Virus record (IMG/VR): IMGVR_UViG_3300029517_000086
DNA: 12,086 nt
Strand: one strand, 5' to 3'
DNA from: a virus
Taxonomy: Duplodnaviria > Heunggongvirae > Uroviricota > Caudoviricetes
Part shown: positions 2,451 through 5,806 of the stretch, in pieces
How positions within the stretch are numbered: the stretch's first letter is position 1
Layout of the letters: each line of letters begins with the position of its first letter
The notes under the pieces: model-generated
The model's database searches: none
Told to the model about the DNA's origin: nothing
The model's input: only the letters and a program-made list of their open reading frames with translations
Made by a program: the position numbers and the translations under genes

Positions 2451-2998
2451 GCGTTAGTTTCTCCACAGTCACGACACGCCACGGCGCCCGGAGCTGCACA
2501 CTCGCGGGCGTCATTACTTTCTGAAATGCAAAAAATTTTGTAGACCAGTGCTGCATGCTCCTGCAGCTTCGAAATTGAGAGGTACAGCTCGTCGTTAATT
2601 GCTGTCTTCTCATGCGGTTCCACTACACCGTCTTCAATTGCTGAACGAATCTGTTTTGAATAACTGCCGATCTGTTCAATGACCTCCAGCAGGCGTTGGT
2701 TGATATCGGCGTTGTCCACATCCTCGACATCAGGAAGAGACACAAAGACGCCATTTGCAGACTGCGCCACAGCGTCAGCAATGAAGTGAGTTCCACCAGC
2801 ACGTTGCAAAATCATTGCCCATCCCAGCGGGAAAATCTGATCGCCATCGGCACGAAGGCGGTTAAATAATGCGTTCTCTGTTACATCCAGCCAGTCAGCA
2901 GCTTCAGCGTAACCCCCCGGCAACGCTGCGATAGTTTTTCTGACAGCTTTCACGTACCACTCAGGCTGTTTTTCTACTTTCCAGTGATGCTTACCCAC
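2447..2998 (-). CDS. CII-like phage regulatory protein (YmfL/CP76-type, tentative), 183 aa
   Basis: Second gene of the rightward early operon, directly after the cro-like gene and overlapping its end by 8 nt. GTG start at 2998..2996 is preceded by AGGAGG. The family assignment comes from position and size only. Confidence 0.6.
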
Positions 2999-3251
2999 GG
3001 TTCACCTCCTGTTCCTGTGGTTTAAACCCATTCTGGTTTTGGCTAGATTGAAAACGTGCCGGATAAAGAATCTGCATTTCGCTGACTTCACCCTTAAAAA
3101 AATTGGCTAAACGTTCTGCAAGCTCGATAGATGGAATCTGCTCCAGCCTCTCAATACGACTCAACGTCGCTGGATTGACTTGAACACCCGCAGCAACATG
3201 CTGCAAAGTGAAACCATGCGCCTTACGCACATTTCGTAATAGTGATTGCAT
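2991..3251 (-). CDS. Cro-like HTH (XRE family) transcriptional regulator
   Basis: 86 aa with an HTH core (FTLQHVAAGVQVNPATLSRIE). Divergent from the CI-type repressor across an operator-rich region. GGAGG sits 4 nt upstream of ATG at 3251..3249. Confidence 0.8.
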   Translation of the reverse strand: MQSLLRNVRKAHGFTLQHVAAGVQVNPATLSRIERLEQIPSIELAERLANFFKGEVSEMQILYPARFQSSQNQNGFKPQEQEVNRG

Positions 3252-3348
3252 ATAACCTCCAAATATTGCGCGTTATGCATGTTATTTCACGCAATTATTT
3301 TGCGCAAGTTGATTTGCTTATCACGCAATAAAGAAATGTAATAAACGC
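3252..3348. promoter_or_regulatory. Divergent immunity promoter/operator region (OR-like) between the cro-like and cI-like genes
   Basis: 97-bp AT-rich intergenic region with repeated ATTGCGYG / CACGCAA half-sites in both orientations: about 3265-3280 aatattgcgcgttatg, 3286-3300 atttcacgcaattat, 3300-3312 tttgcgcaagttg, 3322-3336 atcacgcaataaag. Confidence 0.6.
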
Positions 3349-4041
3349 ATGAACATAGGAAACCGAGTCAGACAACTTCGCCAAGCGAAGAACATGAAAA
3401 TCGCCGATCTCGCTGAAGCAATAGGAGTAGATGCGGCGAACATCTCGCGCTTAGAAACGGGTAAGCAAAAACAATTTACCGAACAAACACTGAGTAATAT
3501 TGCCAAGAGCTTAGGTGTTGATATTGCTGATCTCTTTACCTCTGCCCACAAAAGTAATACTGTATATAAAAACAGTAATAATGAGGATGTTGCGCAGGTG
3601 AAGGATGTGTTCCGTATTGAAATGCTGGATATCAGTGCCAGTGCGGGAAATGGCCTTATCCAAGGCGGTGATGTCATTGATGTGATTCATGCCATCGAAT
3701 ACAGAACTGATAATGCTGTATCAATGTTCGGCGGACGACCAGCCAATCACATCAAAGTTATCAACGTTCGTGGGGACAGTATGTGTCCAACCATTGAGCC
3801 AGGAGATCTCATCTTCGTTGATGTCAGCATCAATCAGTTTGATGGTGATGGTATATATGTCTTTGGTTTTGATGACAAAATATACGTTAAAAGACTTCAA
3901 ATGATTCCTGACAAACTGCTGGTGATTTCTGATAACCAGATTTACCGTGAATGGGGAATTACTAGCGAAAACGAACACCGATTCATGGTCTTTGGAAAGG
4001 TCTTAATCAGTCAGTCGCAAACCCTTAAGAGACATAATTAA
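3349..4041 (+). CDS. CI-type prophage repressor: N-terminal XRE-family HTH plus C-terminal S24 (LexA-like) peptidase domain
   Basis: HTH region (IADLAEAIGVDAANISRLETGK). C-terminal domain with a GDSM serine motif (RGDSMCPTIEPGDLIFVD) and a downstream lysine (IYVKRL), typical of autocleaving repressors. Same strand as int, as for lambda cI. Confidence 0.9.
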   Translation: MNIGNRVRQLRQAKNMKIADLAEAIGVDAANISRLETGKQKQFTEQTLSNIAKSLGVDIADLFTSAHKSNTVYKNSNNEDVAQVKDVFRIEMLDISASAGNGLIQGGDVIDVIHAIEYRTDNAVSMFGGRPANHIKVINVRGDSMCPTIEPGDLIFVDVSINQFDGDGIYVFGFDDKIYVKRLQMIPDKLLVISDNQIYREWGITSENEHRFMVFGKVLISQSQTLKRHN

Positions 4042-4060: not shown

Positions 4061-4085
4061 GGCCACCGAAAGGTGGCTTTTTATT
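4061..4085 (+). terminator. Rho-independent terminator downstream of the repressor gene
   Basis: Stem gccacc (4062-4067), loop gaaa, stem ggtggc (4072-4077), then ttttt (4078-4082), 20 nt after the cI-like stop. Confidence 0.7.
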
Positions 4086-4095
4086 ACCTATAAAT

Positions 4096-4146
4096 TTGCA
4101 TACCTCGCAAATATTACTTGCATATCTCGCAATTTAATTTTATCTT
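4096..4146 (+). promoter_or_regulatory. Candidate leftward-operon promoter with tandem operator-like repeats (OL-like)
   Basis: 20-bp imperfect direct repeat: ttgcatacctcgcaaatatt (4096-4115) and ttgcatatctcgcaatttaa (4118-4137). The CTCGCAA core resembles the half-sites in the cI/cro operator region. A possible -35 TTGCAT (4118-4123) and -10 TATCTT (4141-4146) are spaced 17 nt apart. Confidence 0.45.
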
Positions 4147-4420
4147 TTGTTCCAGACCAACTACCGGATTACAACAAAATCTGGTTGCAACACGGTGCAT
4201 GTGTCGTAAGCAGTCAGTAAATGTCAAAAACGAACAGGCAGGACGCCCACGAAGTAGCCGCCTGGGGCATATGAAGTCCAGGATGATTCGTTGAGTCATG
4301 TTGTGCCACCAGGCACTCATGTTAAAGCAGGTGTATGAAATGAAAGTCCAGATTTTAAACAATAACTGTGAAGTCGTTTGGGCGTAAAACATGACCGCGC
4401 GTAGACCAAGGGAGGAAAAA

Positions 4421-4597
4421 GTGGGAATAGTTAGAAATCAAGCAGATATATTGAAAATCAGCTCTGAATTGCTTGGAGTTTTGAAAAGTGAGCTCACCGC
4501 ACATGGCATCGAGCCCACTGACGAAAATTTAAGTTGGGTTTTGTCGATTATTCAACAATCACTCAAGCCCAGCCTCAGCAAACTTTTTATCGAGTAG
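4421..4597 (+). CDS. Small hypothetical protein (about 58 aa)
   Basis: In-frame GTG at 4421 preceded by GGAGG (4411-4415); the ORF track's longer ATG at 4391 lacks an RBS. Sits between the repressor and the recombination module, where lambdoid phages carry small early genes. Confidence 0.45.
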   Translation: MGIVRNQADILKISSELLGVLKSELTAHGIEPTDENLSWVLSIIQQSLKPSLSKLFIE

Positions 4598-4750
4598 TGC
4601 TTCGAACTTATCGTAAAGCTTGCTTATGTCGTCTATCGGGTTTTCTGACGTACTGTAATTTTTATCTGATGTCATGGCAGCAGTCTGATATGCAGTGTGA
4701 GTCTTAACCGATAGTTGGAATAAATAAAGAATTTTTTCTTCTTTGGTCAT
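4559..4750 (-). CDS. Small hypothetical protein (about 63 aa)
   Basis: ATG at 4750..4748 with AAGGAA 6 nt upstream. Its 3' end overlaps the 3' end of the plus-strand small ORF by 39 bp (convergent). Confidence 0.45.
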   Translation of the reverse strand: MTKEEKILYLFQLSVKTHTAYQTAAMTSDKNYSTSENPIDDISKLYDKFEALLDKKFAEAGLE

Positions 4751-5004
4751 AACTATTTCCTTCTTGGCTATATGAAAACACCAAGATACCACCGAGCCTG
4801 AAGTGGTGAAAAGACAGGCACATAACAGCTAAGTATTTTCAACCAGAGAGAATCCTTAGCGTTGTGGTGAATGCGGCTCAGCGCACGCGGGTTAAGGTTG
4901 AGGCTGACAGTCGACCTTCTGTGGATACCCACCCGTCTGGTGTGCAACCTTCGCCAGGCACCGGGAGGCACCCGGCACCACAACTTTATGCTGTGTGTAG
5001 TCTT

Positions 5005-5051
5005 GACGGTACCAGTTTGTACCCTTGCTTCCGGCTGGTACCGTCCTTTTT
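5005..5051 (+). terminator. Strong rho-independent terminator at the end of a GC-rich non-coding stretch
   Basis: Perfect 11-bp inverted repeat gacggtaccag (5005-5015) / ctggtaccgtc (5035-5045) around a 19-nt loop, followed by c-ttttt (5046-5051). The minus-strand reading has no T-run. Confidence 0.65.
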
Positions 5052-5269
5052 ACAAAACAGAGAAGAGCATCACCGGACGACGGGCTCATAACCCAATCCA
5101 TCCAGGCGGCTGCCACCGCAGGTGTTCTTCACTGTTTTGTGGAGAAACTAACCGCCCCTACGGGGGCATTCATGGAAATGTAATTGACTCGACTCAATAA
5201 TCGCCGGACGGTGAGGGCTTCCTTTTACCCGAATTCAGCGCGGTGCAGCGCATATACGTGGAGAACAAA

Positions 5270-5806
5270 ATGTCATTTATTAAAACTTTTTCTGGGAAGC
5301 ATTTTTATTATGACAGGATAAATAAAGACGACATCGTTATTAACGATATCGCGGTTTCCCTTTCAAATATCTGCCGCTTTGCCGGTCATCTTTCGCACTT
5401 CTACAGCGTCGCCCAACATGCGGTTCTTTGCAGCCAGCTGGTGCCGCAGGAATTTGCTTTTGAAGCGTTAATGCATGATGCAACAGAAGCGTATTGCCAG
5501 GACATTCCCGCACCACTGAAACGCCTTCTTCCTGACTATAAACGGATGGAAGAAAAAATAGACGCCGTAATCCGTGAGAAATACGGGTTACCCCCAGTTA
5601 TGAGTACACCCGTGAAATATGCCGATCTCATCATGCTGGCAACCGAACGCCGCGATCTCGGGCTTGATGATGGCTCTTTCTGGCTTGTACTGGAAGGTAT
5701 CCCGGCAACAGAGATGTTCAACGTGATTCCACTGGCACCGGGCCATGCCTACGGGATGTTTATGGAACGTTTTAAAGAGCTGCATAAGATGCATAAGCAA
5801 TCCTAA
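5270..5806 (+). CDS. HD-domain phosphohydrolase (YfdR-like 5'-deoxynucleotidase family)
   Basis: HD-domain signature residues: H in SVAQHAV and HD in LMHDATEAY. Start chosen at ATG 5270 (MSFIKTF...) with GGAG (5259-5262) upstream, rather than the ORF-track GTG at 5243. Confidence 0.8.
   Translation: MSFIKTFSGKHFYYDRINKDDIVINDIAVSLSNICRFAGHLSHFYSVAQHAVLCSQLVPQEFAFEALMHDATEAYCQDIPAPLKRLLPDYKRMEEKIDAVIREKYGLPPVMSTPVKYADLIMLATERRDLGLDDGSFWLVLEGIPATEMFNVIPLAPGHAYGMFMERFKELHKMHKQS

Follow-up and report, generated by a model that had tools for sequence, protein, structure and literature searches.

A structured RNA module with a divergent STnc100/PasD-type fold in the early-left region of an e14-like lambdoid prophage: a candidate small RNA and attenuator

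The DNA considered here, a 12,086-nt virus record of IMG/VR (IMGVR_UViG_3300029517_000086; this whole stretch is called the window), is an e14/SfV/SfII-like lambdoid prophage of Escherichia coli. Our subject is a segment of its early-left side, between the cI-like repressor gene and yfdR-xis-int, which a preliminary description had proposed to be a structured non-coding RNA ending in a terminator. The segment carries an RNA domain related to the STnc100/PasD family, a linker and an intrinsic terminator (Table 1). Several E. coli chromosomes match positions 4780-5270 at 100% identity, and the Shigella phages SfII and SfV do so at 97%. Where phage records match in '2 places', the yfdP-yfdQ insertion is the cause, not a second copy.

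Table 1. Features of the RNA module and its neighbourhood (window coordinates)
Feature	Position	Strand	Remarks
Structured RNA domain, STnc100/PasD fold, early-operon subfamily	4858..4987	+	RF02076, R1
Small 5' hairpin and purine-rich AGAGAGAA tract	4831..4857	+	minimum-free-energy fold; weakly supported
P1, 5' strand GUUGUGGUG	4861..4869	+	pairs with CACCACAAC (4976-4984), closes the domain
Invariant AAU after P1	4870-4872	+	
P2 hairpin GCGGC / UCAGC loop / GC-A-CGC	4873..4888	+	100% of cells paired
Pseudoknot strand a, AAGGUUG	4894..4900	+	complement of P4 loop CAACCUU (4945-4951); predicted
Small hairpin GUGG AUAC CCAC	4921..4932	+	minimum-free-energy fold only; specific to the window cluster
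P4 hairpin GUCUGGUG / loop UGCAACCUU / CGCCAGGC	4935..4959	+	strands 4935-4942, 4952-4959
P5 hairpin CCGGG AGGCA CCCGG	4961..4975	+	within near-invariant 21-mer CACCGGGAGGCACCCGGCACC (4959-4979)
Single-stranded linker UUUAUGCUGUGUGUAGUCUU	4985..5004	+	candidate seed or RNase E region (function inferred)
Intrinsic terminator, 11-13-bp stem, 15-19-nt loop, U5	5005..5051	+	5' half DicF-like
Long imperfect hairpin, 25-nt arms 5052-5076 / 5116-5140	5052..5140	+	inverted repeat 80% complementary
GC hairpin with UACG tetraloop	5154..5167	+	right end of conserved module
cro-like gene	3251..2991	−	
cI-like repressor gene	3349..4041	+	
cI terminator	4061-4078		
Putative early-left promoter region	4096..4146	+	operator-like 15-mers TTGCATACCTCGCAA (4096-4110), TTGCATATCTCGCAA (4118-4132)
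Candidate −35 TTGCAT, −10 TATCTT	4118-4123, 4141-4146	+	
Two small open reading frames			between cI and the structured region
yfdR, HD-type 5'-deoxynucleotidase	5270..5806	+	followed by xis, int

The segment is richer in GC than its flanks, as had been judged by eye: measured in 200-nt windows, GC content is 54.0% in 4801-5000 and 55.5% in 4901-5100, against 37.5-41.5% upstream (4301-4900) and 43-45% downstream (5201-5500). The short hairpin singled out in the preliminary description was found and is P5 of Table 1. Only overlapping, odd open reading frames (ORFs) cross the segment on either strand, again in agreement with that description (plus strand, 4864..5091, 4871..5200 and 5025..5183; minus strand, 4768..4983 and 4892..5116). 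The extent first proposed, 4800-5051, had to be redrawn: its right end stands, but the conserved domain occupies 4858-4987 and is followed by the tail and terminator, while the conserved module reaches ~5166.

The Infernal/Rfam scan that the preliminary description had called for gave a family. Run in E-value mode, the STnc100 model (RF02076) aligned end to end with 4831-5054 (44.7 bits, E = 2.8 × 10−8; E-values of covariance models are rough). The window gave no match at gathering thresholds because the STnc100 score lies just below the gathering score. A covariance model built from eight relatives with the window excluded, R1, found 4858-4987 with 67.2 bits (E = 1 × 10−13) and also recovered canonical STnc100 copies, which score 52-132 bits in Rfam. 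Two STnc100 signatures are present, GGUGAAU at 4866-4872 and the 21-mer CACCGGGAGGCACCCGGCACC. By sequence and model, 4858-4987 is thus placed in the STnc100/PasD/EcOnc27 fold family as a divergent member.

At least 120 IMG/VR contigs contain the 21-mer, in surroundings that have otherwise diverged strongly (44 clusters at 85% identity), and most of these sequences are canonical STnc100 genes. Most family members were retrieved by motif patterns and form a biased sample. Canonical copies have a promoter, TTGACA-N17/18-TAAATT, ending ~6 nt before P1, together with their own terminator, and often stand beside tRNA genes in tandem arrays of 4-6. Arrays of 4-6 diverged copies per viral contig near tRNA clusters were seen at 2265-3380 of contig L016, at 4349-5513 and 8357-8555 of L066, and at 8044-8560 of L008. 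In strain EDL933 of enterohaemorrhagic E. coli (EHEC), 11 STnc100 copies are expressed, one of them verified by northern blot (PMC5331693). EcOnc27, an Hfq-crosslinked RNA downstream of stx2, overlaps STnc100 (PMC4104026, PMC12711010). PasD of enteropathogenic E. coli (EPEC) comprises Hfq-dependent small RNAs (sRNAs) with RIL-seq targets (PMC8550237) and has been linked to STnc100 by Zhu, Shabalina and Storz 2026 (bioRxiv 10.64898/2026.05.13.724894). The literature offers no mechanism for the STnc100/PasD family.

The window copy resembles STnc100 (EcOnc27 or sRNA103 in EHEC) in its end-to-end alignment to the model, its P1/P2/P4/P5 architecture and the two signatures; it too is borne by a lambdoid prophage and ends in an intrinsic terminator. 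It differs in that P2 is a C/G-swapped version, an extra small hairpin is present, and no adjacent sigma-70 promoter was found. Its setting is also different, since it lies in the early-left operon beside cI as a single copy, not as an array or a convergent sRNA pair, whereas canonical copies occupy the late 'moron' region near Q, tRNAs and stx. PasD1 and PasD2 of EPEC, compared by description only, are likewise prophage sRNAs, of up to ~240 nt, with a 3' terminator and a reported STnc100 fold, but they lie near Q and lpxR in late regions. HnrS (PMC13502914), a 66-nt late-region sRNA, is unrelated.

The core of the domain (4861-4984, ~125 nt) is modelled as five helices with a predicted pseudoknot, the part between P2 and P4 being variable, and every helix and invariant motif is retained in the window copy. 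Covariation analysis, also proposed in the preliminary description, bears out the fold. In a 76-row alignment fitted to R1, 93.5% of cells are paired, against 72.6% when shuffled and 37-51% when slid, and 22 of the 30 pairs change on both sides among the relatives. The G.U pairs are compatible with the plus strand only. The folding z-score of the whole element is −2.66.

Individual helices were followed in several ways. For P1, a sequence-only MAFFT alignment of 19 subfamily clusters gave 8 of 12 pairs changing on both sides, a count that none of 500 shuffles reached, and 93% pairing in the real register against 26-53% in slid controls; on the model alignment the count rises to 10 of 12. Three of the five P2 pairs are C-G in the main family and G-C in the subfamily to which the window copy belongs, and one is A-U in L010. 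P5 was examined in copies retrieved through the P2 motif, because retrieval by the 21-mer fixes the P5 sequence; these genomes contain two independent compensatory variants, CCUGG...CCAGG and UCGGG...CCCGA. All eight P4 pairs change on both sides in the model alignment, with 43 distinct 3' strands. In the e14 prophage of K-12, U4936 is replaced by C, which turns a U.G pair of P4 into C-G. Upstream of the core, the AGAGAGAA tract is kept between the window and ST64B.

The MAFFT columns for the pseudoknot and P4 are out of register, and for this reason own-against-other tests and the covariance-model alignment were used there. The P4 strands of a member complement each other over 6.8 nt, compared with 4.0 nt for strands of other members (P = 4 × 10−20), in a test independent of the model alignment. 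A pseudoknot between the segment after P2 and the P4 loop, which is outside the Rfam consensus, is predicted: in 30 of 39 diverged members the best complement of the P4 loop begins at element positions 34-38, just after P2, although the sequences differ between copies, and duplexes with a member's own loop are more stable than those with the loops of other members (−9.1 versus −5.6 kcal/mol, P = 3 × 10−11). An alternative partner for 4894-4900 in the window subfamily is a local hairpin with 4911-4918.

Downstream of the domain, the linker is nearly invariant in 58 cluster variants; its GUGUGUAGUC part is common to L185 and GUGUG(U/A)AGUC to ST64B. The terminator agrees with that announced in the preliminary description, which had an 11-bp perfect stem and a U-tract on the plus strand only. 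Its stem, 5005-5015 with 5035-5045, has 11 perfect pairs (13 with two G.U) and is followed by C and UUUUU (5047-5051), with a folding energy of −24.4 kcal/mol (z = −4.56 versus shuffles); on the minus strand no U-run follows the stem. A consensus terminator scan missed it because the 19-nt loop exceeds the 8-nt limit of the scan. Two comparisons indicate that the terminator is conserved. ST64B, at 77% identity, preserves the domain and rebuilds the terminator stem by several compensatory changes despite a 20-nt insertion in the loop, and in K-12 the pair A5006-U5044 has become G-C. Across the 58 variants the core 4846-5001 is almost invariant and the flanks vary, with indels that are not multiples of three.

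Conserved structure continues past the terminator. Positions 5040-5270 fold with z = −3.14, and the C5155-G5166 pair of the right-hand GC hairpin is replaced by A-U in a second haplotype and in K-12 e14. The part 5003-5165 alone is common to mEp460, cdtI and Stx2c phages (93% identity), which have other immunity types. The module as a whole is bounded by mosaic joints at ~4780-4813 and ~5166. The only ORF here with a match to phrog_33599 is a 52-aa frame over the long hairpin, and that family was probably built from ORFs miscalled over the 5052-5167 hairpin region.

The non-coding claim of the preliminary description also survived a check for a conserved coding frame, and together with family homology and covariation this supports a structured non-coding RNA. 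Stops occur in all six frames in 7 of the 19 subfamily clusters, and no single frame stays open throughout the 19. Pfam gave no match for any ORF over the region, and PHROGs gave none for the two ORFs that cover the element. PGAP labels the region of the window a 'frameshifted hypothetical protein'. A protein-coding gene, known as ymfH in K-12 and as SfII_35 ('hypothetical protein') in SfII and here a frameshifted pseudogene, would account for those annotations, for the ORFs of 75 and 109 aa that are open in the window and for the phenotype of a plasmid clone. Yet the 109-aa frame is interrupted by four stops in ST64B, whose own open frame lacks a start codon, and the substitutions seen among relatives are compensatory for RNA helices.

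The ymfH locus (b1142) of K-12 e14 occupies the same position upstream of xisE-intE and is 90.5% identical to window 4786-5165, but it is annotated as a coding sequence. K-12 YmfH passes through all three window frames by way of two 1-nt deletions, which makes it a three-frame chimera, and the substitutions fall on codon positions 1, 2 and 3 in the numbers 13, 12 and 9, with no excess at third positions. The K-12 copy (5070-5381 of L232; NC_000913.3 1,201,069-1,201,380, minus strand) has two lesions in the otherwise invariant 21-mer. From these comparisons, ymfH is best read as an ORF miscalled over the structured RNA module. 'ymfH' of K-12 is co-regulated with e14 induction genes (PMC12133099), and overexpression of a ymfH clone triggers the RcaT toxin of retron-Sen2 (bioRxiv 10.1101/2020.06.22.160242); since ymfH is essentially the RNA module, the trigger could be RNA.

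The subfamily of the window copy, in which P2 reads AAUGCGGCU..GCGC.CGCG, is mostly missed by standard Rfam thresholds; among its copies scanned at the gathering threshold, only that of L191 passed (51.3 bits). It was found in at least nine enterobacterial genera (Escherichia, Shigella, Klebsiella, Raoultella, Buttiauxella, Pantoea, Enterobacter, Citrobacter and Pseudescherichia). Its copies immediately follow a cI/DicA-type repressor gene of the same orientation, and a cro-like gene is divergent; this conserved position corresponds by gene order to the head of the early-left operon. Twelve of the 19 clusters have no terminator, the domain standing 25-45 nt upstream of a ribosome-binding site and start codon, and in many copies P1 is extended to 17-20 bp.

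Two members in well-studied genomes are unannotated. In the Qin prophage of K-12 (2952-3085 of L226; NC_000913.3 ~1,649,451-1,649,584) the copy is flanked by the dicF terminator and by dicB, whose ATG comes ~25 nt later; it scores 34.4 bits with Rfam and 133 bits with R1, and its P5 is the compensatory CCUGG/CCAGG variant. In phage P1 (2499-2628 of L229; NC_005856.1 ~70,075-70,204) the copy is just upstream of tciA in the C1-controlled ban operon, with the P5 loop AAGCA instead of AGGCA; the ban operon also has tRNA genes and an annotated 'dicF-like region'.

More distant or doubtful relatives were also noted. In phage lambda, a degenerate relative recognised by eye, GTGCTCTTTCCGTTGTGCTGAAT...CAGCACAAC, lies at ~44,845-44,934 (11846-11935 of L227), between tR' and S; its 5' flank is as in the P1 and L163 copies, and neither Rfam nor R1 detects it. 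In mEp460 (3345-3480 of L005) the same DicF-like terminator is joined to a domain that has diverged further and escapes R1; this version retains P1 and GAAU, and its P5 is CCGG AGAUCAGCA CCGG. Matches in L235, L253 and L257 came from metagenome-assembled genomes labelled Microbacteriaceae, Veillonella and Collinsella. The first looks like chance; the other two carry Qin-type enterobacterial sequence and are probably mis-binned contigs.

The terminator and the position of the module both recall DicF. The terminator 5' half of the window, UUGACGGUACCAGUUUGUAC, and the start of its loop match DicF (UUGGCGGUAUCAGUUUUAC) at 16 of 19-20 nt, and the mEp460 version matches at 18 of 20. As in dicBF of Qin, a terminator hairpin is found in an early-left operon downstream of a cI/DicA-type repressor, and in Qin a copy of the same structured domain lies directly between dicF and dicB. 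The loop sequences differ, as does the order, which is domain then hairpin here and DicF then domain in Qin. The DicF RNA arises from the operon transcript by termination and RNase III/E processing (bioRxiv 10.1101/2023.04.14.536235).

A source of transcription was sought upstream. Two operator-like 15-mers, 22 bp apart from start to start, directly follow the cI terminator, and TTGC-N7-GCAA-type sites are also present in the cI-cro intergenic region (3266-3328). Judged by sequence and position, the sites at 4096-4146 probably mark OL/pL, and we infer a promoter there. Promoters picked by eye closer to the element, AAGACA-17-TATTTT (4811-4839) and GAGAAT (4848-4853), are weak and not kept in the second haplotype, and were rejected. 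The only promoter-like site that passed the scan, TGGAAA-17-AATAAT (5173-5201, plus strand), lies just past the module and ~70 nt before yfdR, which in this haplotype may therefore be served by a promoter of its own.

Taken together, the results incline us, with some reserve, to view the locus as a non-coding RNA module in the leader of a repressor-controlled early-left operon, in which the domain, the 20-nt linker and the DicF-like terminator would yield an early-operon small RNA and serve as an attenuator. As no credible promoter adjoins the element, early-left transcripts from upstream are proposed as its source. RNA polymerase would enter from upstream, probably from a cI-controlled pL near 4118-4146, mainly upon induction or sporadic, spontaneous derepression. 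The domain would fold as it is transcribed, and transcripts would mostly end at 5051. A discrete, structured small RNA would thereby be released, with a hairpin and U-tail 3' end of the Hfq-binding type, and would act in trans on its targets, possibly after trimming by RNase E or RNase III, as for DicF. The same terminator would limit read-through into yfdR-xis-int.

Several observations weigh against an early-operon small RNA and attenuator. The curated threshold of STnc100 is missed (44.7 against a gathering score of 47 bits). The scan found no sigma-70 promoter beside the element, the best candidate matching at 8 of 12 positions, and the minus-strand ORF 4559..4750 is convergent between the putative pL and the element. 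The U-tract has only five U. Likeness to DicF by covariance model is weak: RF00039 scores 19.9 bits (E = 0.12) at 4992-5046, where the threshold is 48 and DicF of K-12 reaches 76.7 bits. DicF-like targeting of ftsZ is unsupported, since by a crude method the duplex energy was no better than that of shuffles (fraction 0.52). Finally, most subfamily relatives lack a terminator and stand close to a start codon, so the domain may act in cis.

This last point leads to the strongest alternative, which we regard as possible but doubtful: that the domain acts in cis, as a leader or an intercistronic element of early phage operons, with the small terminated RNA as a by-product. It would fold during transcription and act on the transcript that contains it, and might be an RNase III/E processing signal, a 5' stabiliser, a translation platform or a nut/put-like modifier of elongation and termination. 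The terminator-less clusters place the domain before the ribosome-binding site and start codon of dicB (Qin), tciA (P1), ydfA-like and small membrane-protein genes; the long P1 helices of many copies resemble an RNase III substrate; and the position after the repressor gene is conserved while a promoter of its own was not found. The further structure at 5052-5167 would fit, and the presence of several terminators in the early-left operon of SfV points to a requirement for antitermination. On the other hand, canonical members are stand-alone, Hfq-bound sRNAs with their own promoter and terminator, often in arrays (PMC4104026, PMC8550237), and the downstream genes are mutually unrelated, which makes a gene-specific riboswitch unlikely. 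In the window a terminator follows the domain and yfdR is 285 nt away, whereas in Qin the domain is downstream of the dicF terminator and, placed there, cannot aid read-through of it.

Known antitermination elements offer only a partial parallel. HK022 put and the nutL/N-leader of lambda are also structured RNAs at the start of the early-left operon, upstream of terminators. But put is a two-stem RNA of ~70 nt (PMC9378689) that acts on RNA polymerase and has copies in each of the pL and pR operons, whereas the domain here has five helices and ~125 nt and is single: no second copy, as a put-like arrangement would have, was found in the window or its pR operon. Unlike lambda nut, the window has no boxA or N homologue, and the P5 loop is not GNRA-like; a GCUCU-type boxA upstream is absent from the window and precedes only 3 of the 19 clusters. 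R1 finds nothing in HK022 or lambda, there is no likeness in sequence or by description, and identity with put or nut was rejected. A metabolite riboswitch was considered, as a junction with a pseudoknot followed by a terminator or ribosome-binding site fits that shape, and was set aside as unlikely: the genes downstream bear no relation to one another, and canonical copies are not accompanied by a regulated gene. The arm sizes and loops do not suit a tRNA-like mimic, and ARAGORN-type features are absent.

An unlikely, though more radical, reading is that the domain is a distinct functional fold, a pseudoknotted multi-helix junction whose junction and loop nucleotides are nearly invariant and that would work as a protein-binding decoy or sensor, or as a new kind of cis-regulator, and not as a seed-pairing sRNA. 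Lambda-like and P1-like temperate enterobacterial phages would then employ it in three ways, as multi-copy genes that stand alone, as 5' leaders and as intercistronic spacers before toxic early genes (dicB, tciA). Its conservation across unrelated contexts would imply one specific molecular partner, for which a host or phage protein, RNA polymerase, the ribosome or a defence system would be candidates, with the ymfH clone that triggers the retron-Sen2 toxin as one lead.

Improbable to our mind is a remnant of an STnc100-type gene in decay, or nothing more than a conserved recombination joint bordering the immunity region, that serves no present function in this prophage. The module does lie exactly between the two mosaic joints, scores below the Rfam threshold and has its 21-mer damaged in K-12 e14, and lambda has a degenerate relative by eye. 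Nevertheless, all helices and invariant motifs are intact in the window copy, the near-invariant core sits between variable flanks, ST64B has re-created the terminator by compensation, and covariation extends over the genera of the subfamily. The protein-coding gene, already largely refuted by the frame and substitution data above, is scarcely credible.

Other features of the window were recorded in passing. The small ORFs 4391-4597 (plus) and 4559-4750 (minus), between the putative pL and the element, are convergent with a 39-nt overlap and match phrog_15476 and phrog_2605, respectively, both PHROGs of unknown function. The plus-strand ORF has an Arg-rich start, MTARRPREEK; phrog_15476 was its sole PHROG match and no N-like family was found for it, and RefSeq annotates only its minus-strand neighbour. 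At 1730-1804, within the replication-protein gene, four CAGATTTTGACGGGT-like direct repeats with 15-nt spacing resemble origin iterons, and the same repeats occur in K-12 CPS-53 upstream of yfdP (~2900-3040 of L231). A perfect 15-nt inverted repeat (2453-2467 / 5138-5152) places UGUGGAGAAACUAAC in both the pR- and the pL-operon transcripts; its length is about the chance level for 12 kb.

Of 5,426 complete E. coli genomes, 3,005 match part of the 4780-5270 query and 413 match at least 80% of it. A widespread RNA is at present mis-annotated as a hypothetical protein, a pseudogene or, in K-12, ymfH. The analysis adds to the family an early-operon subfamily, the unannotated copies of K-12 Qin and phage P1, a re-reading of ymfH and a pseudoknot predicted as part of the fold, and extends STnc100/PasD, previously placed in the late region of Stx-type phages, to early operons under repressor control. 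It bears on how toxic early prophage genes (dicB) and xis/int may be gated, and on whether the retron-triggering activity of 'ymfH' lies in the RNA.

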